Of a stretch of 64,000 nt of DNA, positions 45,162-59,423 are shown piece after piece. The position numbers and the translations under genes were made by a program. The notes beneath the pieces are model-generated. The model saw only the letters and a program-made list of their open reading frames with translations. It ran no database searches and was not told the origin of the DNA. The DNA is taken from contig JAPOQZ010000266.1 in NCBI GenBank assembly GCA_026710435.1, forward strand, positions 13,609-77,608. Reading direction: 5' to 3'. The first letter of the stretch is position 1, and each line of letters begins with the position of its first letter. Source of the stretch: a bacterium (GTDB taxonomy: Bacteria; Actinomycetota; Acidimicrobiia; Spongiisociales; Spongiisociaceae).

Positions 45162-47006
45162 TCAGACCGGCAGCCACTTGATAGTCATAAGGAATACGTA
45201 GATACCGATGATCGCGAGACCTATAACGACTGAGAGCACTCGTTCTATCTTGGGGCTCTGTTCCACGGTTCGCGCGGTATCGCGGAACAGAACCGAACCG
45301 GTCTCTGTAATCAGAGGATCGTCACGTTCGGAGCGTTGGCCAAACAGATGAATAGTCATGAATACCACTACTGACGCGAGCAGCATCGATACTACATCGT
45401 TCAGTAGCGCAGGCCATGCGGCGGCTTCGGTACGGGCGAACACCGCCATACCTGCCACGACGAGCGCCGAGATGACAATTACTACCAATTCAGCCATGTT
45501 TCGTCCACGCTGCTTGCTGTTTACTAGCGTGTCAAGGCTTGCTTGCAGGCGCGCGGTTTCGGAACGGTCCAATCCGGCAATTCCTATCTGATGGCTTACG
45601 TATTCGTAGGCTTCGGTCAGTCTGGTGACGTCGTTGGTCGTGTTGATCGTACGAACACTCTTCAGCATCGTTGCGCGGTTCTCCTCGTCGGCCTGCAGTC
45701 CGACCAGTTTCCGATATAGCGCGTAGGTTTGCTGCTCTTCGTTGATCATATGGGCATTGAGGCGCGAGGTGCGGAACAACAGGATGAGAACGAACACAGT
45801 AGCGCCTGCACCCAACAATCCGTAGTAGTTGCCGAACACCGAAAACCATCCGTATTCGGGGATGTGGGTGAACCACTCATCACGCATATAGACGATGAAC
45901 CCGAAACCGAGCAGACTGAGGATGAGCCACCTAACATCGGCCCGTTCCTCGGATCGAAAGTTGATAAGGGCGTTCACCGCGATCACCGCAGTGGCACCGA
46001 TCCAGAGGAAGTCGGTTCGGTAGACGGTCACAGTAGCGAAGGATCCCAACCATATCAGAGACAGAACCGGGCGAAGATACTGTATGACGTTCACACCCAG
46101 GTGTTTAGTTTGCGGATTCGCGTAACGGAAAGCGATGTTTCCGAACGAACTGACTATCCCGGTAACAATTACCCAGATGACTGCAATCGATGCGAATCCG
46201 CCCAGATATATGCCCGGGCCGGTAAGTCCAGGAAAGAAGGTTAGGCCGACTATAAGACTGCCTAATATGCCAGCTACATTTGTTACTATCGAAACAGCAA
46301 GTATGCAGCCTAACTCATCCTTGGGATCGTCAGGTAATTCCGTCGTACCCTTGCATATACTATGGTACAAGGCCGTTCCCAACTTAAACCTAAAGGATAT
46401 CCAGGAGAGACAGACGGCCGTAGATGCTGCCAACAAGAGACCCCATAGGAGCTTCCATCCACCCCCTTCAGTCGTTATACCACCGCTCTGTGACAACGTG
46501 ACAAGCGCAATACCAGCCATAGCTGTAGCTATCAACAGCCAATCCTGCACGACCATAGTCCGGTAGCGACTACGAGTATCATGCCGTTTCTGATAAGCAA
46601 CGAAGAGGATAAGCCATCCGCCGGTAATAACGGTTACTAAAGCAGTATCGAGAAATAGAGTGGCCCAAACAAAGAGTGCCCAAATGAAGCCGTTTAGCAT
46701 TGCTGGCACACCATCACGTGTGGGAAGGCGCCGAACGATCCAAGTCCAGACGTCTCTACGTCTTATGAGGTCCGGGCAAGTCAACATTAGATAGACGAAC
46801 CAGACAATGGATATTATGAGGTGGAACCAGAATTGGAATACAAACGGGCCAACGGTTGTACCTACAAGTGCCACTACGAGCGGAACCCAAGACATCAAGA
46901 ATACTGAAACACCCATCCACGATGCCGCCCTTGTGTCCGGCTTCAGCCTCCTGATATCCATCATAAGGAGCCCTTCTGATTCCGTAGGGCCCGGCATCGT
47001 GGCCAT
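45162..47006 (-). CDS. Large membrane protein: EamA/DMT-like N-terminal part plus extra TM and soluble C-terminal region
   Basis: About 14-15 hydrophobic segments, GVNVIQYLRPVLSLIWL EamA-like segment; visibly lower GC; start may be the ATG near 46964. Confidence 0.65.
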   Translation of the reverse strand: MATMPGPTESEGLLMMDIRRLKPDTRAASWMGVSVFLMSWVPLVVALVGTTVGPFVFQFWFHLIISIVWFVYLMLTCPDLIRRRDVWTWIVRRLPTRDGVPAMLNGFIWALFVWATLFLDTALVTVITGGWLILFVAYQKRHDTRSRYRTMVVQDWLLIATAMAGIALVTLSQSGGITTEGGGWKLLWGLLLAASTAVCLSWISFRFKLGTALYHSICKGTTELPDDPKDELGCILAVSIVTNVAGILGSLIVGLTFFPGLTGPGIYLGGFASIAVIWVIVTGIVSSFGNIAFRYANPQTKHLGVNVIQYLRPVLSLIWLGSFATVTVYRTDFLWIGATAVIAVNALINFRSEERADVRWLILSLLGFGFIVYMRDEWFTHIPEYGWFSVFGNYYGLLGAGATVFVLILLFRTSRLNAHMINEEQQTYALYRKLVGLQADEENRATMLKSVRTINTTNDVTRLTEAYEYVSHQIGIAGLDRSETARLQASLDTLVNSKQRGRNMAELVVIVISALVVAGMAVFARTEAAAWPALLNDVVSMLLASVVVFMTIHLFGQRSERDDPLITETGSVLFRDTARTVEQSPKIERVLSVVIGLAIIGIYVFLMTIKWLPV

Positions 47007-48839: not shown

Positions 48840-50558
48840 TCATGGAAGAGCGTCCTGCAGGAAGGCTCGGTACAGGGCGATCGTGCTCTCGGGTGACACC
48901 AACTCCCTGTACCGGCTGTGGATCGGGACGGCAAGGTCCTCCGTCTGCTCGATGCGGGCGGTTGGCAGGATCCGGGAAGCTGCTTCGAGGTGCACGATCC
49001 AGGGGTCGGTAGGCCGGGCACAGATGAGCATCTCGGCCTTGATGAGGGGCAGGCGCTCGGTGGTGGGATATTCCCAGAGGGCGACGAAGTTGTGGTGGTA
49101 GGTGCGCCCTCCTTTCAGGAACTCCACCAGGCTGTGATGGATGTCGGCCGCGGGAGCGAACCTGCCCACGCGTGTACCGGCGGCGGTCCGAGCGTAGAAC
49201 GGCCACCACAGCAGCACGTCCCTCAGGTAGTTCCAGGCCCAGAGGAGGTGCGAACCGTCCCACGAGGGAACCATCGGCGGTTGGTAGTTGTCGATGAAGT
49301 CCTGGCTCTCGTCGGGTGTGTATATCGGGATGCCGTCCAGGATCAGGTGACGTACCAGGGAGGGCCTCTCGATCGCCAGTTGCATGCCGAGCACCGCGCC
49401 GGTGTGGTTGCCGTACACGTCGTAGTCCTCGTGGCCCTCCGCATCGCACACTTCCCCCACCAGACGGGCTAGATCCGCCATATCAGGCTTCCCGGAGAAC
49501 GGCGCCGAGTCCCCGTTCCCCGGTGTGTCCAGCGCCAGCGCCGGCCGGTCGGCGCCCATCGCCCGCATGAGAGGTTCGAGCGCCGCGCCGGAACCGGGTG
49601 GCGATGCCTGCAGGAGCAGGAGGGGTCTCCCCTCGCCCGGGATGCGTCGCACGAGCATCTGCCCGGCCGAGGTGGCGACGTACCCCCGCTGGACGGTCCC
49701 CGGATCGAGCGCCGCCCGGCGCGGTGGCGGGGCGTCGGGCAGGTCGGGATCCGCTAGAAATGACTGAACCAGGTCGGCCAGGTCGGCCAGGTCGGAGGTA
49801 CGCCGCATCCTGATCTCGGCGTTCTCGACCCGATCCGGGAGGCGTCCCAGATGCTCCGCGAGCGGGTCGTCCGGACCCACCGTGATCATCGTCGGCACGG
49901 ACAAGCGGGCGAGGGCCTCGGTTGGCTCGTAGCGGAAGGACGCATGGTAGAGCTGCCAGTAGAGAGGCCCGGCCCTCATCATGTCCAGGACCTTGTCGTG
50001 CAGCCCGCCGGCCGTGGGCATGTCGAGCACTCGCCGCGCCTCGGGGGTCCTCCGGTACCAGGGCCAGAACAGCAACATGTCGCGGCGCATCGCCCAGGTC
50101 CGTACCAGATGGGACCCGTCCCACTGCGGTTTAAGGGATGGCGCGTAGTTGGCCACCAGGTCGGTGCGCTCGTCCTCCGTATAGGCCGCGAGAGCATTGA
50201 GGATCACGCGGTTGACCCGTCTCGCATGCCGGTGGGCGAAGTCCAGAGCCAGGGTGGCGCCTGTATGCGATCCGTAGAGATCGACCCGGTCCAGCCCCAT
50301 CCAATCGAGCGTCTTGGCCAGGGCGTCCGAGTAGTCGGCGCACGACGGAGCTGCGAGCCCGAGGCCCGCCGACTCGCCTGCTCCCGGGGTGTCGAGCGCG
50401 ATCACGGTCCTGCCGGTTGCGAGCTCCCGGATCAGGGGTTCGAGAGCGAACGAACTGCCCGGAGCCGGATGGAGCAGTACCAGCGGGGGACCGCTTCCCG
50501 CTCGCCGGTAGTGGACCTCCCGGTCGCCGACGTACCCGAAGTACTTGAGTATCCTCAC
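48840..50558 (-). CDS. Tandem double alpha/beta hydrolase-fold protein
   Basis: PLVLLHPAPGSS..ALDTPGAGES..LYGSHTGA and PLLLLQASP..ALDTPGNGDS..VYGNHTGA. Confidence 0.87.
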   Translation of the reverse strand: MRILKYFGYVGDREVHYRRAGSGPPLVLLHPAPGSSFALEPLIRELATGRTVIALDTPGAGESAGLGLAAPSCADYSDALAKTLDWMGLDRVDLYGSHTGATLALDFAHRHARRVNRVILNALAAYTEDERTDLVANYAPSLKPQWDGSHLVRTWAMRRDMLLFWPWYRRTPEARRVLDMPTAGGLHDKVLDMMRAGPLYWQLYHASFRYEPTEALARLSVPTMITVGPDDPLAEHLGRLPDRVENAEIRMRRTSDLADLADLVQSFLADPDLPDAPPPRRAALDPGTVQRGYVATSAGQMLVRRIPGEGRPLLLLQASPPGSGAALEPLMRAMGADRPALALDTPGNGDSAPFSGKPDMADLARLVGEVCDAEGHEDYDVYGNHTGAVLGMQLAIERPSLVRHLILDGIPIYTPDESQDFIDNYQPPMVPSWDGSHLLWAWNYLRDVLLWWPFYARTAAGTRVGRFAPAADIHHSLVEFLKGGRTYHHNFVALWEYPTTERLPLIKAEMLICARPTDPWIVHLEAASRILPTARIEQTEDLAVPIHSRYRELVSPESTIALYRAFLQDALP

Positions 50559-50578: not shown

Positions 50579-52936
50579 CTACCTACCGGATCGACCGCCG
50601 TCCCTATCGAGTGAAAGGCCCTCGGCGACCCTTGCGAGCAGTGCCCAGGCGCCTTCCACGTCGAGAACGCGTGCGCCCACCGACTCGCAGGCTAGCGTTT
50701 TGTCGAGCACCCAGTCCCATTTGTCAATCTCCGGGTTCTCGATGGCCGCCGCCAGGTCGGCAGGTGCCGGGCGCGGCCCGTCGAGCAAATCACGGATCGT
50801 GGCTTCGAGGTCGCGGATGCATGTCCTGGCTATCTGGATGGCGGGTCCTTCGGCGGTCGCCGAGACGCCTTGGACCGATAGCGCCAGCGCCGCGGTGTGC
50901 AGGCTGCGGTCGCCCTTCCAAGGAAACAGCAGAACCTCTGAATCGCCTGCCAGAACCGAGGCGCCGTCCAGGCCGAATCGGTGGAACGCGGCCCGGCCCT
51001 CCGAGAGGAGGCGCTGCGCGTTCGGATCGAGCCACGCAGGTATGTCGGAGGACCGGTAGACGGCAACCATCTCGGCCCGAACCCGATCCGAGACGGCAGG
51101 GCTTTCACCACCGGAGAAATGAGGGACGCCCCCGGCGGCCCTCATGACTTGCACGACACGGGCCGGCTTGTCGACACCGGCCACTTTCCAGCGCTTCCCG
51201 GCGAAGATCAGCAGGGTGCCTTCCCGGAGGGGCTGGTAGATCGGGATGGTGCCGAGTGTCCTGCCGCCGCTCAGGACCCTCCACTCGTCGGCCGTGTGGA
51301 AGGCGGTGTAGAAGCGGTAGTTGTTGATCTGACGTTCACCGGCCACGCCGGGCAGCAGCAGGCCGTCCGCCGCTTGTATCAGGAGGTCGTGAGTTCCCAT
51401 CGCCCGGAGAAGTCGAGCGAAACGAGTGCGGTCGACGAGGTGGAAGGGACCGGCTCCGCATAGGGCGCGGTAGAGGTCGGCGGCGGTGGCACCCCCGTGC
51501 TGGGCGATCACCGACATGATCTGCTGGATCAGCGTCGAGTAGTTGAATCCGGGATCGGCCGGGGATTCGAGCCAGTTCCCGAGCATCAGGCGCACCATGG
51601 CGGTTGCCTGCACGATGTCGCAGCGCAGCCTGTCGACAGGGTGGGTGTCTTGGTCGACAGACCTCTCGGTGATGTAGAGGCGCAGCACCGCCGGGTCGTC
51701 CCGGCGTCCCGACCGGCCCAGTCGCTGCCAGAGCGAGGCGACCGATGGGGGCGGTCCGATCTGGGCCACGCTCTTTACCGTACCGATGTCGATGCCCAAT
51801 TCGAGCGTGGAAGTGCTCACCGCGGTTGCGGGTCGGGTCCGGTCCTTTATCCGCGTCTCGACCGTCTGGCGAATACCCTTGGACAGGTTGCCGTGGTGCG
51901 GCCAGAACTCGTTGGGTACCCGCGCGCGGGCGCATCGACGGGCGAGCAGGTCGGCATAGGTCTCCACGGCATTGCGGGTATTGGCGAACACCAGGTTGTC
52001 GTGGCCGCGTAGGTGCCTGAAAAGGTGCTCCGCGATCGCTCTCTGGGATTCCTCGTCTTTGGCCTCCCCTTCCACACCGGTCGATTCCTGTCCGACTTCG
52101 GCGCCGCTCCGATACTTCGGTGGCGGGGCTTCGTAGCCGCGCATCTGGAGCAGCAACCTCCGTCCGTCCAACTTCGATTCGACGATCAAGACATGCTCCG
52201 GGTCGGTCGGACGGAGGAAGGCGGCGGCCTGCCTCATGTCACCGAGGGTCGCCGACAGTCCGATGCGGGACGGCTGTAGGCGAGTGGCCAGATCGACACG
52301 GTTCATCAGGGATTGCAGCTGGACACCGCGCTGGGCGCCCAGGAAGGAGTGGAGTTCGTCGATCACCAGGTAACGCAAACCGGCGAACAGGCGCGGAACG
52401 ATGGGACCCCGGTTGACGAAGGTGGCCTCCAACGACTCCGGAGTGATAAGCAGCACACCGGACGGGTCGGCAACCAGCTTCCGCTTGGCTGTGGCCGGTA
52501 CGTCGCCATGCCAGCGATGGACGGGCACATCCAACCGTTCGCAAAGCTGCTCGAGGCGTTGATGCTGATCGTTTATCAATGCCTTCAGGGGCGATAGGTA
52601 CAGCACCTGCACCCCGGCGGACGGTTCGGACTCCCGTTCGTTCCAAGGGTCGTAGGCGTTCCAAAGATCCCGTTCTCCATCTGTCTTCGGGTGGATGGCG
52701 GTCGCCACCTTCGACAGGATCGGGAGAAAGGCGGCTTCGGTCTTCCCCGCGGCCGTAGCCGCGGCGACGATCACGTCGCGGTCGCCGTCGAGGATCGGGC
52801 CGATGGCACGCTCCTGGGCGTCATGCAGCGAGGTCCATCCCTGGTCGTATATCCAGCGCTGCATCCGAGGATGCAAGCGGTTGAAGGCCGCGGACGGGGA
52901 AGTATCAGAGACGGAAGTGGATGAGGTTGTCATCAT
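50579..52936 (-). CDS. sngC: Lhr-like DEAD/DEAH-box helicase, Shango system
   Basis: AATAAGKTEAAF, SPLKALINDQ, ITPESLE, IDELH, GLSAT, HHGNLS, TSTLELGIDIG, QRLGRSGRR; follows the TerB and ATPase genes; symbol assigned by gene order. Confidence 0.88.
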   Translation of the reverse strand: MMTTSSTSVSDTSPSAAFNRLHPRMQRWIYDQGWTSLHDAQERAIGPILDGDRDVIVAAATAAGKTEAAFLPILSKVATAIHPKTDGERDLWNAYDPWNERESEPSAGVQVLYLSPLKALINDQHQRLEQLCERLDVPVHRWHGDVPATAKRKLVADPSGVLLITPESLEATFVNRGPIVPRLFAGLRYLVIDELHSFLGAQRGVQLQSLMNRVDLATRLQPSRIGLSATLGDMRQAAAFLRPTDPEHVLIVESKLDGRRLLLQMRGYEAPPPKYRSGAEVGQESTGVEGEAKDEESQRAIAEHLFRHLRGHDNLVFANTRNAVETYADLLARRCARARVPNEFWPHHGNLSKGIRQTVETRIKDRTRPATAVSTSTLELGIDIGTVKSVAQIGPPPSVASLWQRLGRSGRRDDPAVLRLYITERSVDQDTHPVDRLRCDIVQATAMVRLMLGNWLESPADPGFNYSTLIQQIMSVIAQHGGATAADLYRALCGAGPFHLVDRTRFARLLRAMGTHDLLIQAADGLLLPGVAGERQINNYRFYTAFHTADEWRVLSGGRTLGTIPIYQPLREGTLLIFAGKRWKVAGVDKPARVVQVMRAAGGVPHFSGGESPAVSDRVRAEMVAVYRSSDIPAWLDPNAQRLLSEGRAAFHRFGLDGASVLAGDSEVLLFPWKGDRSLHTAALALSVQGVSATAEGPAIQIARTCIRDLEATIRDLLDGPRPAPADLAAAIENPEIDKWDWVLDKTLACESVGARVLDVEGAWALLARVAEGLSLDRDGGRSGR

Positions 52937-54260
52937 CGGACGCCGCAGTCTGGGTGGCCGGAGGGGCAACGTCGCCGGCCGGGAGCGGTGCGAGGTCCGG
53001 GTTCGTCTCCTGCTCGATATCGATACGATCGATCAGGTCGGACCAGTTCACGCCGGGATTCTGGTCGAGCACCGCGAGGAGGTTCACAAACTCCTTGATG
53101 GTGGTGCGCGGCGTGCGGAAGTAGGCGTCACCCACCCGGGACGCACAGTGTTCCATGAAAGCGGTCAATGCCTCGTCGGGTACGAGGTATGCGTCCGGAT
53201 CGCCGCTCGCGTACACGTGCCGGAGCTTGGTGAGCAGGACGTACATGTCCTCGGGGGACAGATTGGCGAGGCGCAACACCGGCCCCGAGAAGTCCACCAG
53301 CCCCTTGCGGGCAAAGGCGTTCTCGGCCAGGCGCGACTGCAGAGCCGGGTACGAGTAGAGGCCACGCCGGGTGTCGAACAGCATGTCAGGAGTGCCACTG
53401 AACACGAAACCGAGCCCCGCGGCGGAGCCCTGCAGGCAGTCGTTCAGTATGCGCAGAACCTGTTCGTAGTTGGAGTTCCGGGCCCGTGTGTGGGACATCT
53501 TGTAGAGATTCACCATCTCGTCCAGGCAGACCAGAAGGCCGGAGAACCCGGCGAGGCGGACGAAACGGGCGAATAGCTTGAGATGGTCGTAGAAGGTTCG
53601 GTCGTCGATGATGGTGCGGACCCCGAGCGCCTTCCGCGAATCGGTGCGGGTCGAGAACTCGGCGCGCAACCACCGCACCACATCGGAGCGCAACCGGTCG
53701 TGGCCGGTGTCGTGAGCACGCCAGTAGGCGGCGACAACTTCGGCGAAGTCGTACCCGCCGACGAGCTCCCGGAGATCACTGAGCCGCTCACGGATCACGG
53801 TCTCCGCGTCGATCCCTCGGGATCGGGCCGCGCTCAGGCTTGTCGTGATGAATCGTTCCACCACCGGCAGCATCGCACCGCCTTCGGGCTTCGCCCGCGT
53901 GGACAGGTTTCGCATCAGCTCGGCGTAGAGACCGCGTGCATGGCCACCGGTCGAGTAGAGCCGGCGTTCGGGTGACAGGTCGGCGTGGACGGTAACGAGC
54001 TTGCGCTCCAGCGCGATCGAACGGACCAGGTTGAGGAAGAAGGACTTGCCCGCCCCGTACTCGCCGATCACGAGACGGAACGCCGAACCACCGTCGACGA
54101 TCCGGTCGATGTCACCGACGAGAGCCGTCACTTCGTCGACGCGCCCGACCTGGATGTGCTGCTGGCCGACCCGTGGTACGACCCCGGCCCGTAACGACTG
54201 GATGACCGCGTCGCGGTCCCGTGGACGGATCCGGCCGGTAGCGTGTGTAACAGAAATCAT
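52905..54260 (-). CDS. sngB: DUF2791 (BrxC/BrxD-like) P-loop ATPase, Shango system
   Basis: IQSLRAGVVP..G..HIQVGR, IGEYGAGKSFF Walker A, LVCLDEMVNLYK Walker B, YSYPALQSRL; symbol assigned by gene order. Confidence 0.9.
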   Translation of the reverse strand: MISVTHATGRIRPRDRDAVIQSLRAGVVPRVGQQHIQVGRVDEVTALVGDIDRIVDGGSAFRLVIGEYGAGKSFFLNLVRSIALERKLVTVHADLSPERRLYSTGGHARGLYAELMRNLSTRAKPEGGAMLPVVERFITTSLSAARSRGIDAETVIRERLSDLRELVGGYDFAEVVAAYWRAHDTGHDRLRSDVVRWLRAEFSTRTDSRKALGVRTIIDDRTFYDHLKLFARFVRLAGFSGLLVCLDEMVNLYKMSHTRARNSNYEQVLRILNDCLQGSAAGLGFVFSGTPDMLFDTRRGLYSYPALQSRLAENAFARKGLVDFSGPVLRLANLSPEDMYVLLTKLRHVYASGDPDAYLVPDEALTAFMEHCASRVGDAYFRTPRTTIKEFVNLLAVLDQNPGVNWSDLIDRIDIEQETNPDLAPLPAGDVAPPATQTAASDDDNLIHFRL

Positions 54261-56668
54261 GTCAGCTCCTCCACAGCGTAGGTATTGAGTACGACAGGGT
54301 CATCTCCTTCGACAACCGGTTCCCCACAGGCCTCCATGGCGGTTTCGTTGATCACGTCGAGGGCGCTGTCCAGAAACGGCAAGCCCACCGACTCGGCGAG
54401 GCGCTCGGCGCTGGAGCGATCCCACTCCGACCGAGCGACAAGCTTGCGCATCAAGGCGGAATGGGCCTCGTCGAGTTCTCCGATCACCGACCCGTTCTCC
54501 AGACCGGTCGGCGACGGTTCCGGGGTGGGGATCGGGGCATCGTCGACGAAGATATCGGTCAGCAGCGCCGACACGCGGTCCGTCTCTGCGAGGCGGGCCC
54601 GAACCTTTTGAGGGTCCAGGGTTACCGGCGGTCGCCTGGCTGCAACCTGCCCGGTGTTGGGAACTGACCAGCGGGCGGTGGGTTGTGCATCCCTGACGGT
54701 TACGGGGCCATGGTCATCGATGTGGAGACCATGCACCCTCCGGTAGAGGTCGCTGGTGTCTAGGCCAAGATACCCGAAGACCTTTTCCAGAGCGGTCAGC
54801 TCTTGGCGGCTCACCAGCCCGTCGGCAGCAGCCAGGGGAATCAGAAAGCTGCCGATCGCAGCCCGATCCACCCTTGGGATTCGCTCCGCCTTGTGTTTCA
54901 TACCACGCATCCCGGGCCTCGAGGCGTCCAGGAACTCGACGTACGCAGCCAGCCGGCGTCGCTCGGCGTTATCCAGGCCGGCGATCCCCTCCAGCCGCTC
55001 CACGATGAGCTTGTACTGCTCGGGGCCGACACCGCCGTCCGCCCCGGCAACTATCGCAGCGACATGGACGATCGGCAGTGCGGTGCCATAGGCATCCGAC
55101 GGCGACTCTGCGGTCCCGCCCGGAAGCCGGAATAAGACTACCCGGGTACCCGGGTTGGGAATGGTGCCGCCGAACCGCACGTCGGGTTCGATTCCAACGC
55201 CGATTCTGGCGAGCATGGACGCCAACCAACCTGCCTCCTGCTTCGTCAGCTTGGCCACGTGTCCTGGTGACCACCTCTCCACCAACTCGTCCAAGGGAAC
55301 CACCGCGGTGGTTCCGCCCTCGAGAACCTCCGACGCCCAACCGCGTAGATCGTCAAGAATCTGGCCTCCGTGAGAAGCGAGCAGACACTCGGGGAGCAGC
55401 GAGAGCGCCGCCGCGGTCTCTCCCCTGCCGGGGTTCTTCCCGATGAACTTGCTGTAGGCATCGAGTTCGGCGTTGCACTGCTTTGCTATGTTCCTTAGCT
55501 TCTGCAGCGGATTGTGGACCCACCTGTCGGTCCACACGATGTCGGGTATGTTCCCCGCTGTGGCATGCACCGTCCCACCGTACGTGCCTTGAGTAAGGCC
55601 CGGCGCCAGGTCGAGACCTCTTGGCTGCTCGTATCGAGCGAAAGTTATCGTATGATCGAAGCCGTGTGAGGCTGTCCGGTACGAGACATCGATCTTGCCG
55701 GCCGGGCGACGGACCTTCATCCCGTCGGGAAACCTGGCTCTATGTCGGATGAGGAACAGTTCATCGAATTCGTCCGGACACCGCCTCGCAGGTGTCGCCG
55801 GCTTGACGCCAGGATGATGATGCAGGTAGCTGAGTCCCCACTCAGCCGGTACCTTCGAGCTCTCGGCCAAGTACTTTCCGATGCCGATGCGCACCGCGAG
55901 CGGGGTTTCCAGTATCTTCCGCTCCGGATCCCGCGGGATAGGTTCGATGTCCGTGTGTAGGCATAGCAATCCTTCGATAAAGGTCATGAACTCGGTTGCG
56001 CTTCGAGAGAAGATACGGTTGTGCCCGTAGATGTCCAGGAGACGGCGAACCTCGACGATGATCGCTAGCACGTCGGGATGGTCGACGTCGGCGCCGATGT
56101 CTGCGAGCAGGCGACGTTCGAGCCCATAGAAGAAGAGGAGCACGTACCCGATATGGGCGATCTTGTCGCGGCGCCCGCCCGCCAACCATCCGAGGTACGC
56201 GGCCCGAACGCGGGGGTGGGCCCGGTCGTACGACGGCCAGTCCTCGATCAGCGCGCCGTCCCAATCTGCATGTCTCCAGTCAACCGGGAGCCCAGGGTCG
56301 ATTAGGGATGGTTCGGTCCAGTATCCGCTCACCGAAAGGACTTCGCTGCCGACGTAGACCATCCCACCCTCGATGGACCGTCCCTGCACGACGATCCTCC
56401 TTCCAGCGGGAACCCAGGTCGCACGGCCCGGCTCGGATCGCACCGGTTCCGATTCGGATAGTTCGGATGGTGTCGACTCCGGGACTCCAAGACAAGTGGG
56501 ATGGCAATCACACGGGTGAGGTACCGGGCCTCCGTTCTGCCGTGTTCGGTTCCTGTTCCGCTTGGATCGCTGCTTCTGTTTTGCCCGCCGCCTATGTCTG
56601 GCCCGTTGATGTTGTTGTCTGGACCGCTTCCTCTGCTTGGAACGCTTCTTGCTCTTGGTCCGGCTCAC
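54257..56668 (-). CDS. sngA: TerB_N-TerB-TerB_C protein, Shango SngA-like (proximal copy)
   Basis: W.P.G..I.V.GR.IEGGMVYVG, EPSLIDP.L, WPSY, IGYVLLFFYGLERR, AADG, AET.RVS.LL.DIF, LD.INE. Confidence 0.88.
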   Translation of the reverse strand: MSRTKSKKRSKQRKRSRQQHQRARHRRRAKQKQRSKRNRNRTRQNGGPVPHPCDCHPTCLGVPESTPSELSESEPVRSEPGRATWVPAGRRIVVQGRSIEGGMVYVGSEVLSVSGYWTEPSLIDPGLPVDWRHADWDGALIEDWPSYDRAHPRVRAAYLGWLAGGRRDKIAHIGYVLLFFYGLERRLLADIGADVDHPDVLAIIVEVRRLLDIYGHNRIFSRSATEFMTFIEGLLCLHTDIEPIPRDPERKILETPLAVRIGIGKYLAESSKVPAEWGLSYLHHHPGVKPATPARRCPDEFDELFLIRHRARFPDGMKVRRPAGKIDVSYRTASHGFDHTITFARYEQPRGLDLAPGLTQGTYGGTVHATAGNIPDIVWTDRWVHNPLQKLRNIAKQCNAELDAYSKFIGKNPGRGETAAALSLLPECLLASHGGQILDDLRGWASEVLEGGTTAVVPLDELVERWSPGHVAKLTKQEAGWLASMLARIGVGIEPDVRFGGTIPNPGTRVVLFRLPGGTAESPSDAYGTALPIVHVAAIVAGADGGVGPEQYKLIVERLEGIAGLDNAERRRLAAYVEFLDASRPGMRGMKHKAERIPRVDRAAIGSFLIPLAAADGLVSRQELTALEKVFGYLGLDTSDLYRRVHGLHIDDHGPVTVRDAQPTARWSVPNTGQVAARRPPVTLDPQKVRARLAETDRVSALLTDIFVDDAPIPTPEPSPTGLENGSVIGELDEAHSALMRKLVARSEWDRSSAERLAESVGLPFLDSALDVINETAMEACGEPVVEGDDPVVLNTYAVEELT

Positions 56669-56856
56669 AACTCCACCTTCAGGTAGCTCCTGCCGGGGCC
56701 ACAGGAGGCGTGCTCTCCGGATCTAGCAGCTACGGCAACACGCTCATTGTGGTACGGGGGACGCCGGATACGTAGGTGTTCGCAGCGGGCCTTGCCCGGC
56801 AGATGCGCCGCGGCGTGGCAGTCTCGTGGACGCTTGCGGTCGGGTACACGGGTCAT
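56665..56856 (-). CDS. Possible 63-aa ORF translationally coupled between the two TerB genes
   Basis: Its ATG overlaps the upstream stop (ATGA) and its TGA overlaps the downstream GTG start (GTGA); no recognisable domain. Confidence 0.3.
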   Translation of the reverse strand: MTRVPDRKRPRDCHAAAHLPGKARCEHLRIRRPPYHNERVAVAARSGEHASCGPGRSYLKVEL

Positions 56857-59060
56857 GGATGGTAAGCCAGTTGCGCCAAGGCATAGGCATTGAGAACCAC
56901 GGGGTCGTTCCCCTCGACGACCGCTTCCCCCCAGGAGTCGAGGGCGGTCTCGTTAATGATGTCGAGCGCGCCGTCGAGGAACGGCAACCCGAATGAGCGG
57001 GCCAGTTCCTCGGCCGAGCCCCGATCCCACTCGGCTCGGGTGGTGAGCACCTCCAGCAGCTGCGAATGCGGCCTGTCCAGGCCTTCGATGATCGATCCCG
57101 GTTCCGGACCGTGTGAGTTCGACTCCGCCTCTGGTGGTAGATCGTCGTCCACGAAGATGTCGGTCAGCAGGCTCGCGACGCGGTTCGTCTCGGCGAGGCG
57201 GGCCTGGACTTTTTGGGGGTCCAGGGATACAGAACGGCGCCGCCCGGCGACCGAGCCGGCCTTGGGAAGTTCCCAGCGAGTGTCGGGCGCTCCCTCTCGA
57301 CCGGTGACCGGGCCGGTATCCCCCAAGTCGAGCGTATGGGCGCGGCTGTACAGGTGGGCTTCGTCGAGGCCCATGTGTTCGAACAACTTCTCCAGCATCG
57401 TGATCTCCTCGGGATTGACGGTCCCGTCAACTGCCGCCAGCTCGATCAGAAGACCCCCTACTCTCGGCAGATCGCCGGGCTCCATCGCCTTTACCCTTTT
57501 CTTGACTCCGTACACACGAGGTTTCCGGACACCGAGCAACGCCAGGTGTGCTCGCAACCTGAGCCGATCGGTGGCGTCCAGTCCGGGGATCCCCTCCAGA
57601 CGTTCGGCGAGAAACCGCTGCTCGGAGGGGTTGATCGTCCCGTCCGCGGCGGCCACCAGCGCACCCAGATAGACCAGTGACAGAGCGGCGCCGTACAGTG
57701 GAGTAGCTTTCGCGGGCGCACCCTCGGGAAGCGGGAACAGCACCGCTTGCGTACGGCGACCCGGCATGGGCGAACCGAAACGGACATCGGGTTCTATGCC
57801 CACTCCGATCTTGGCGAGTGTGGAAGCCAGGGCGAGGCCCTCGGTCTTGGTGAGTTTCTGGGTGCGGCCCGGCCACCAACGTTCCACCAGTTCATCGAGG
57901 AGGATCACTGACTTCCGGCCCCCGGCGAGTACCTCCGACGTCCAGGCGCGGAGATCATCGTGGACCGGACCGCCGCTCTCGGCGATGAGCACGTCGGGTA
58001 GCAGCCCGTGCGTGACCGGCGTCCCCACCCTGTCGGGGTAGCGTCCCACATAGCGGCTGTAGGAGTCCAGGTCATCGTCGCATTGTTCGGCCAACTCGTT
58101 CAGTTCGGTGATCAGCGCCGGCTCGAGCGCTACGTCAGGAATACCCTTGAGAGTGATGAACACTCCTCCGTCGAATCCGGGGGACGTCGCCCGGTAGGAG
58201 AGCCTGATCTTCCTGGCCGGCTTCGGTATCTGAAGACCATCTCCGAATCGCGCTCTGTATCGAAACCCGAACAGCTCGTCGAATTCGGCGGCAACGCGCT
58301 TGGACGGTGTTCGCAGCCGTCGCTCGGGATGGTGACGGAGGTAATGGAGAGCCCAACCGGCCGGGATGGGGGACCCCTTCGAGATACACTTGCCGATGCC
58401 GATCCGGATCGCTGCCGGAACGCCGAGCTTCACGCGACCGTCAACCCATGGGGAGGGCTGTACGTCGGTGTCGACCGACCGCACCCCCTCGATGAAGTCC
58501 AGCAGCTGACTGGCGCTCCGGGCGAATGAACGCTCCTTGTGATGGATGCCGAGGAGCCGTTCGATCTCGGCCAGGATCGTGGTGACCTCCGGAAGGTGGA
58601 GATCGGCGCCGAGGTCGGCGAACAGGCGCCGTTCGAGACCGTAGAAGAACAGCCACACGTAACCGATGGGAACCGACTTGTCACGGCGACCCCGGGCCAG
58701 CCACTTGAGATAGGCGGCGCGGGCGCGCGGGTTGGCCATTCTGTACGACGGGTTCTTGTTCACGGAAGCCCCGGTACGGTCCGGGGTTTTCCAGTGAACC
58801 GCAAGGTGAGGAACGATGAGGCTCGGCTCGGGTCCGCGTCCGTTCGCAGCCAGAGCGCCGTTACCGATGTAGACCATCCCGCCCTCGATCGAGCGGCCGG
58901 CCACGTCGATCCGTCCACCGGGAGGGACCCAGGTGGCCGGGCCTAGCCTGGATCGTCTCTCCGACCACCGGAGGTGGCCGCTGTCCCACCAGTAAGGCGT
59001 CGGACGGCCGGGCTCCGTGTTCCGTCCGGGACGGTTGGTCCTATGCCTGGGCCGGTTCAC
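56853..59060 (-). CDS. sngA: TerB_N-TerB-TerB_C protein, Shango SngA-like (distal copy)
   Basis: GTG behind an AGGGG RBS; same motif series (IEGGMVYIG, EPSLI, IGYVWLFFYGLERR, GIEPDVRFG, AADG.I..E, LDIINE). Confidence 0.85.
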   Translation of the reverse strand: MNRPRHRTNRPGRNTEPGRPTPYWWDSGHLRWSERRSRLGPATWVPPGGRIDVAGRSIEGGMVYIGNGALAANGRGPEPSLIVPHLAVHWKTPDRTGASVNKNPSYRMANPRARAAYLKWLARGRRDKSVPIGYVWLFFYGLERRLFADLGADLHLPEVTTILAEIERLLGIHHKERSFARSASQLLDFIEGVRSVDTDVQPSPWVDGRVKLGVPAAIRIGIGKCISKGSPIPAGWALHYLRHHPERRLRTPSKRVAAEFDELFGFRYRARFGDGLQIPKPARKIRLSYRATSPGFDGGVFITLKGIPDVALEPALITELNELAEQCDDDLDSYSRYVGRYPDRVGTPVTHGLLPDVLIAESGGPVHDDLRAWTSEVLAGGRKSVILLDELVERWWPGRTQKLTKTEGLALASTLAKIGVGIEPDVRFGSPMPGRRTQAVLFPLPEGAPAKATPLYGAALSLVYLGALVAAADGTINPSEQRFLAERLEGIPGLDATDRLRLRAHLALLGVRKPRVYGVKKRVKAMEPGDLPRVGGLLIELAAVDGTVNPEEITMLEKLFEHMGLDEAHLYSRAHTLDLGDTGPVTGREGAPDTRWELPKAGSVAGRRRSVSLDPQKVQARLAETNRVASLLTDIFVDDDLPPEAESNSHGPEPGSIIEGLDRPHSQLLEVLTTRAEWDRGSAEELARSFGLPFLDGALDIINETALDSWGEAVVEGNDPVVLNAYALAQLAYHP

Positions 59061-59423
59061 AATTCCCCTTTCAGGTGCCGTCTTCGGCCGGAGGGGAAGT
59101 GTCCGATCGGCATGCTGCCGCGAACGACCATTATGATAACGACATCCCACGACTCCGAAGAGTTTCAGGCCCCGCGAGGGTGCATCGCGAGGGTGCATAC
59201 TGTACGGATGCGTCGCAAAGGAGCGTGGATAGGTGCTCACTTGGGGTATCACCGAGGAGGCCAACTGCTGGGTCCGAGCGGATGAACAGGGGACATTCCA
59301 AGTGGAAACCGGAACTGTCTTTGCCGGGGACGGTCGCGGTTCTCCTATCCGCGCACCCTCTCAGATGACTGCACGCAGAGGATCACGTCGCCGAGGCGCT
59401 CGCCGACGCCCGATGAGCTTCCC

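Follow-up and report, generated by a model that had tools for sequence, protein, structure and literature searches.

A rare four-gene variant of Shango with two divergent sngA genes in a sponge-symbiont family of Acidimicrobiia

Shango, the described system closest to the locus analysed here, consists of three genes and gave 10-100-fold protection on plates according to the available text of Johnson et al. (10.1101/2022.11.11.516204); in the available portions of two sources, phage protection was shown for the P. aeruginosa and E. coli systems (10.1101/2022.11.11.516204; 10.1101/2022.05.11.491447). The function of TerB in defence was called unknown and membrane surveillance was proposed for it in the accessible parts of two reports (10.1101/2022.05.11.491447; 10.1101/2025.09.30.679545), and an in-silico preprint, likewise available in part, suggested that the acidic residues of TerB bind metal (10.1101/2021.07.23.453527). 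These partial texts held no mechanism for Shango, no evidence that SngA senses anything and no report of a double-sngA locus in the Shango and TerB literature; supplements and DefenseFinder tables could list some. Bunzi and Dionysus also contain a TerB domain with a proposed role in membrane surveillance and, in the portion of the source at hand (10.1101/2025.09.30.679545), have membrane or pore-forming partners, whereas SngA at the present locus partners an ATPase and a helicase. In Thoeris, loci with two ThsB sensors were reported to feed one ThsA, with paralogues of different spectra, in the excerpted text of 10.1101/2021.01.06.425286.

The window, by which we mean the whole 64,000-nucleotide stretch of DNA that was analysed, has, on its minus strand, the four open frames of sngA1, sngA2, sngB and sngC in this order, as read from its ORFs (Table 1). 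PADLOC matched them to SngA (2.8e-70 and 1.6e-69), SngB (2.2e-178) and SngC (9.6e-269), which upheld the preliminary description of a Shango-type locus with two tandem SngA genes. The locus shares with Shango the three protein families, their order on one strand (sngA2, sngB and sngC being adjacent), the coupling of the sngA stop to the sngB start, and intact ATPase and helicase motifs. It departs from Shango, described with three genes, in an additional full-length sngA that lies upstream behind a leader of its own, in the reciprocal signatures of the two copies and in an extra copy that can be unlinked in relatives. The genes had been described as lying on one strand with overlapping start and stop codons throughout; the shared strand and the overlaps of sngA2 with sngB (4 nt) and of sngB with sngC (about 32 nt) were borne out, whereas sngA1 and sngA2 stand 184 nt apart.

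Table 1. Positions of the four genes, the sngA1 leader and the spacer between the sngA copies within the window
Feature	Position	Strand	Description and basis
Leader of sngA1	59061..59160	-	CATAAT-type element about 80 nt upstream and purine-rich ribosome-binding-like site; DNA alignments
sngA1 (distal SngA, 735 aa from GTG)	56853..59060	-	ORF, Pfam, PADLOC
Spacer (184 nt) carrying the sngA2 leader	56669..56852	-	CACAAT element and ribosome-binding-like site
sngA2 (proximal SngA, 803 aa)	54257..56668	-	ORF, Pfam, PADLOC; stop overlaps sngB start
sngB (BrxC/BrxD-family, PF10923, ATPase, 451 aa)	52905..54260	-	Pfam, PADLOC, motifs
sngC (Lhr-like superfamily 2 helicase, about 785 aa from ATG 52936)	50579..52936	-	Pfam, PADLOC, motifs

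The boundary of sngA1 at 59060 is a GTG preceded by GAAAGGGG, a ribosome-binding-like site. Its product runs from TerB_N through a middle domain and TerB to a winged-helix TerB_C, and in both SngA1 and SngA2 the TerB_N, TerB and TerB_C domains each scored above the Pfam cut-offs. SngB retained intact Walker A (GEYGAGKS) and Walker B (LVCLDE) motifs, SngC retained motifs I, II (DELH), III, V and VI, and no nuclease domain was detected in SngC with Pfam or NCBIfam. The window's genome (G000) holds a single sngB, and no further copy of sngA or sngB was found in it. Pfam lists PF10923, which we take to be the DUF2791 named earlier for this ATPase, as BrxC_BrxD. Of the BREX type 2 proteins, BrxD was matched by SngB (PADLOC 6.2e-46; NCBIfam 155 bits) and BrxHI by SngC (1.7e-111), but these matches were far weaker than the SngB and SngC scores, the 155 bits lay below the BrxD cut-off of 350, and no further BREX gene adjoins the four genes. 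Several Actinomycetota loci (L056:10386-14210, L058:10431-14204, L061, L063, L069, L088, L089 and L094) have SngC frames of about 1200-1300 codons from stop to stop, against the usual 750-800 aa, and possibly carry a fused extra domain.

An assembly artefact was ruled out by run contigs over the locus. In a comparison that covered 4 of the 24 runs with matching DNA, the X4 contig bridged 56477-59912 with 0 differences, and one X9 contig spanned 49000-59361 with 413 differences (about 96% identity). One X9 contig, at a depth of 4.7, has single-base indels in sngC at window positions 51561 and 52638-52641, which may be assembly errors or may mark a broken sngC in that strain.

The two SngA proteins share 50% identity over 726 alignment columns with their Pfam domains complete, in keeping with the earlier observation that both TerB copies are full length, open and clearly different. 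The insert noted in the proximal copy was also present, at 26+4 = 30 aa relative to SngA1 rather than the roughly 35 aa first given, and predicted structures placed it in the loop of a beta-hairpin. Signature residues were counted over 19 A1, 29 A2 and 50 close outgroup proteins after removal of duplicates (8 rows dropped), and within the A1 and A2 clades these counts stem from a handful of ancestral changes and are not independent of one another. The two DG-x5-E motifs of TerB kept their full set of four acidic residues in 19/19 A1, 0/29 A2 and 48/50 outgroup proteins; the window's SngA1 has the complete set (D473, E480, D545 and E552), and its SngA2 has three of the four, with the change E551Q. 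Part of the acidic set was also absent in 22 of 89 distant single-copy SngAs. The loop insert occurred in every A2 protein (29/29) and in no A1 (0/19) or outgroup (0/50) protein. The Trp of a YWPSY motif was found in 0/19 A1, 28/29 A2 and 44/50 outgroup proteins, and a conserved Cys and Arg in 0/19, 29/29 and 50/50, respectively; the window's SngA1 carries N103, V256 and L531 in place of the Trp, Cys and Arg. The net charge of TerB_N ranged from +2 to +12 in A1 vs -3 to -14 in A2. The N-terminal tail of A2 is long and polybasic, and 7 of 8 locus sequences have CxC in it; the A1 tail is shorter and basic, with YWWD or YWWE in 5 of 7 (YWWD in the window's SngA1). On the evidence of these alignments, A1 and A2 have diverged reciprocally at conserved sites.

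The SngA2 core model reached a pLDDT of 89.9, with two low-confidence linkers before TerB_C. Its TerB region has the TerB fold, matching 2ou3_B with Z 12.6 (rmsd 6.1, 129 aligned), and TerB_C resembled winged helices in many matches of a middling Z 6-7 (best Z 6.9, rmsd 2.8, 66 aligned). Because the C-terminal region with TerB_C has a strongly negative net charge (-13 to -22), this domain would be suited to protein docking rather than DNA binding. The N-terminal 411 residues of SngA1 were modelled with a pLDDT of 94.1; a fold search with them returned nothing clear (best Z 5.1), and no viral structure matched them at E<=0.001. Foldseek with the whole SngA2 model gave no match at E<=0.001, and no PDB sequence matched SngA2 or SngB. 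SngA has no clear transmembrane helix, the best 19-residue hydropathy (1.5-1.7) falling inside the TerB fold.

We propose, at a probability of about 0.5, that the two SngAs are alternative input subunits on one SngB-SngC motor and answer to different infection cues. The tail, TerB_N, middle domain and TerB would together form the variable sensing or localising end of SngA, and TerB_C, an acidic winged helix on a flexible linker, would serve as the common docking module for SngB; TerB_C is the part most alike between SngA1 and SngA2, with A1-A2 identity peaking in the last segment compared (0.54-0.67) and at 0.33-0.45 in parts of TerB_N and TerB. Each SngA would recruit the shared SngB ATPase and SngC helicase upon its own infection cue, and SngB would then load or switch on SngC on DNA, so that phage replication is stalled. 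The anti-phage role assumed in this mechanism would carry over by analogy from the P. aeruginosa and E. coli Shango systems. The likeness to multi-thsB Thoeris lies in the logic only, with divergent tandem paralogues beside one shared effector, each sufficient alone in Thoeris. There is no homology, and Thoeris has a small-molecule signal and a demonstrated split in specificity, whereas sensing by SngA and a split between its copies are only proposed here. The alternative-input reading is supported by the intact paralogue clades, the purifying selection on both, the reciprocal changes between them and the presence of a single sngB in each genome.

The A1-type and A2-type proteins formed two clades that were sisters in wider trees. 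Joining both copies of one genome was rejected for G000 (p-AU 2e-42) and for G002 (p-AU 2e-6), the two genomes with a tandem pair, and with it a recent duplication within a genome. The SngB and SngC trees each showed one family lineage, with the A2-only loci as a supported subclade. The simplest history consistent with these trees would be that sngA duplicated once in the ancestor of the family and that lineages then repeatedly lost one of the two copies. By the Nei-Gojobori method with a codon bootstrap, pairwise dN/dS was 0.32-0.43 for A1 and 0.39 for the orphan A1 described below; for A2, it was 0.34 in the tandem pair and 0.28 between G005 and G006. Values for SngB and SngC were 0.08-0.13 and 0.21-0.27, respectively. 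As dS was high in distant pairs, the closely related G005/G006 pairs give the most reliable values; all bootstrap intervals for sngA lay below 1. By this measure both sngA copies are under purifying selection, and the neutral evolution of one copy, which had been named as an outcome that would speak against two working subunits, was found in neither. A pseudogene or neutral copy was ruled out by the open frames and the dN/dS values well below 1.

A duplicate can also be kept without a new specificity, both copies performing one function, singly or as mixed oligomers, for dosage or through drift-driven complementary loss of sub-functions. Such a redundant or partly partitioned duplicate would suit the recurrence of single-copy loci of either type, the exchange of tails and leaders between copies, and the ordinary extent of conserved-site loss. 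On their stems A1 lost 13 and A2 lost 7 of 188 conserved sites, and seven single-copy control clades lost 1-25, so that an unusually high loss on the A1 and A2 stems was not supported and the divergence itself is unexceptional, which also counts against the alternative-input reading. Redundancy is at odds with the persistence of copies at about 50% identity whose opposite signatures are fixed, in at least 19 and at least 29 distinct proteins. Loci with one type only speak against strict complementation, and an unlinked A1 orphan is still under selection. We regard redundancy as rather unlikely.

The leaders of sngA1 and sngA2, roughly 100 nt each, were homologous in DNA alignments, and the duplicated unit therefore included the leader. 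A scan with the sigma-70 consensus returned 0 full promoters; the CATAAT and CACAAT elements of the leaders may nonetheless function as promoters. Because each sngA has its own homologous leader, the four genes are probably not one transcription unit. The leaders of G002 (L015:13784-13920 and L015:11396-11530) looked swapped with respect to G000, its A1 leader resembling the G000 A2 leader and its A2 leader resembling the A1 leader of G000 and G001. Synonymous divergence between G000 and G002 differed twofold between the copies (dS 0.51 for A1 and 1.02 for A2), and the leader swap together with the unequal dS suggests recombination between the sngA copies.

Its own leader, the lack of coupling to sngB and the ability to sit at another locus are also what would be expected of A1 as a regulator or decoy, with the translationally coupled A2 as the working subunit. 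A1 could then compete for SngB and hold the motor off, or soak up a phage-encoded Shango inhibitor, and its loss of the Trp, Cys and Arg conserved in 88-100% of the close outgroup would fit such a change of role. However, in G001, G430 and G431 the operon looks complete with an A1-type gene as its sole sngA, and agreement with the family-conserved columns was no lower for A1 (0.86-0.91) than for A2 (0.80-0.86). A regulatory or decoy role for A1 is thus improbable.

Sponge metagenomes gave the best DNA matches to the locus, and sngA was present in 9 of the 29 genomes of the window's family, with 2 tandem, 2 split and 5 single-copy. The tandem pair lies at the same site in G000 and G002. At that site G001 has a single A1-type gene with sngBC. 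In G003, G019, G021 and G022, sngBC is joined by a single A2-type gene. Both split genomes, G005 and G006, have their A1-type orphan far from the A2-B-C locus, with one sngB each. Two further genomes reached through their loci, G430 and G431, have one A1-type gene with sngBC. The A1-only cassette in L024 and L029 is embedded in a gene array whose repeated members measure about 850 bp. In G001 (L014:11334-11954), about 620 bp absent from G000 separate the sngA leader from the MmgE/PrpD gene; this stretch is similar to parts of L024 and L029 and is possibly a small mobile element.

Over residues 41-672, the product of the single G001 gene shared 87-96% identity with its sister A1 proteins; over the last 58 residues its identity to them fell to 66%, against 88% to an A2 protein, and the gene ends at the sngB-coupled stop. 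As judged from these identities, it is an A1-body/A2-tail recombinant, the tandem having collapsed to one chimeric gene. An obligate heterocomplex of A1 and A2 in the tandem genomes could explain the complementary losses at conserved sites. It would also accord with A1- and A2-type proteins whose longest contigs have identical lengths in four further records (108569, 60384, 957816 and 319065), which suggests more two-copy loci. However, sngBC is accompanied by a single SngA type in seven genomes, one of them with the chimeric collapse; because each type stands alone with sngBC and because of the G001 recombinant, such an obligate heteromer is very unlikely. Alternative specificity subunits are favoured over it because the copies diverged reciprocally and each type occurs alone with sngBC. 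Gene content supports the sufficiency of each SngA type alone; the loss of one copy in 5 of the 9 family genomes with sngA counts against the alternative-input reading. The same two observations that favour alternative subunits bear out part of the earlier proposal that two specificity subunits feed one effector; the sensor role of SngA within it is itself a proposal, and the operon it assumed is probably not one unit.

The locus is flanked by genes for hydrolase and MmgE/PrpD proteins (Pfam), and these metabolic flanks, with no defence island in the window, also count against alternative inputs. A 572-aa protein with two alpha/beta-hydrolase domains (window 48840-50558, minus strand) lies directly 3' of sngC and is conserved in G001 and G002; elsewhere it is not part of the cassette. 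A 614-aa hydrophobic protein (window 45162-47006, minus strand), in a low-GC stretch of about 53%, had no Pfam, PADLOC or NCBIfam match. Because its gene is missing at the matching site of G002, the region is probably a recent insertion.

Metabolic flanks and a site common to G000, G001 and G002 are also compatible with a Ter-type stress or DNA-upkeep role of the locus, or of A1 alone, within the sponge rather than defence, and TerB domains were tied to stress response and possibly to metal binding in the available text of 10.1101/2021.07.23.453527. All three PADLOC profiles matched Shango strongly, however. The cassette is patchy in the family and occupies several different genomic sites, and G005 and G006 have a DNA methylase-ATPase set, an SNF2 helicase and a Schlafen AlbA_2 protein as neighbours. 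A role outside defence is therefore very improbable. The orphan sngA1 (L018:2285-8055 in G005; L020:1748-7677 in G006) sits at a variable spot near succinyl-CoA ligase genes, which in G005 holds C5 DNA methylase, HATPase/HEF_HK and Response_reg_2 genes and in G006 a TnpB/Cas12f-like gene and one for an SNF2 helicase. Loci with A2 only (L017:1144-4464, L019:1336-4973, L022 and L023) are flanked by Schlafen AlbA_2/HATPase_c_4, ATPase_2 and AAA_14-DUF4143 genes.

That double-sngA loci might already be catalogued as common had been named as an outcome that would speak against the proposal; a survey found them not to be common in the samples searched. Among 79 genome sngB loci, drawn from the best 80 of 106 confirmed, sngA was present in 74 and at least 2.5 kb of upstream sequence in 65, and the only tandem was L026 (= G002). 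The best 80 of 132 metagenome loci included 74 with sngA and 36 that were informative, with 0 tandems, and a metagenome scan with sngA1 gave no confirmed locus. The class sample had an sngA match in 4/401 genomes and the phylum sample in 19/401, with a double in G000 only in each; one match in these samples, in G517, was partial. No double sngA was found in the family of G433 (matches in 3/81 genomes), the class of G805 (8/401) or the class of G806 (10/401), where both genomes with several matches have a single gene, matched as two stretches of its frame in one and broken into three fragments in the other. The plasmid search yielded 680 records and 682 places. A full-length double sngA was not found outside the sponge-symbiont Acidimicrobiia family in the samples searched, and among those samples the duplication is confined to this one family.

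Read from sequence, the locus is a rare, lineage-limited four-gene variant of Shango in which both sngA copies are maintained and differently specialised. Its host is uncultured, the variant comes from one family, and duplication of a sensor was already known from Thoeris. Shango is nevertheless widespread and tested, and the sngA pair offers a natural handle on its mechanism; paralogues that share one motor form a test set for the specificity of SngA, the acidic residues of TerB and the domain that would dock SngB. More speculatively, the specificity of Shango may be modular, SngA being an exchangeable receptor that attaches to the common SngB-SngC motor by its winged-helix tail, a possibility that we hold only tentatively. 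The family would then have a two-receptor version that works in trans and is reshuffled by recombination, one receptor keeping the acidic site of TerB intact and the other having gained a loop and a basic CxC tail. If so, comparing A1, A2 and the natural chimera would map the trigger and the docking surface of Shango.
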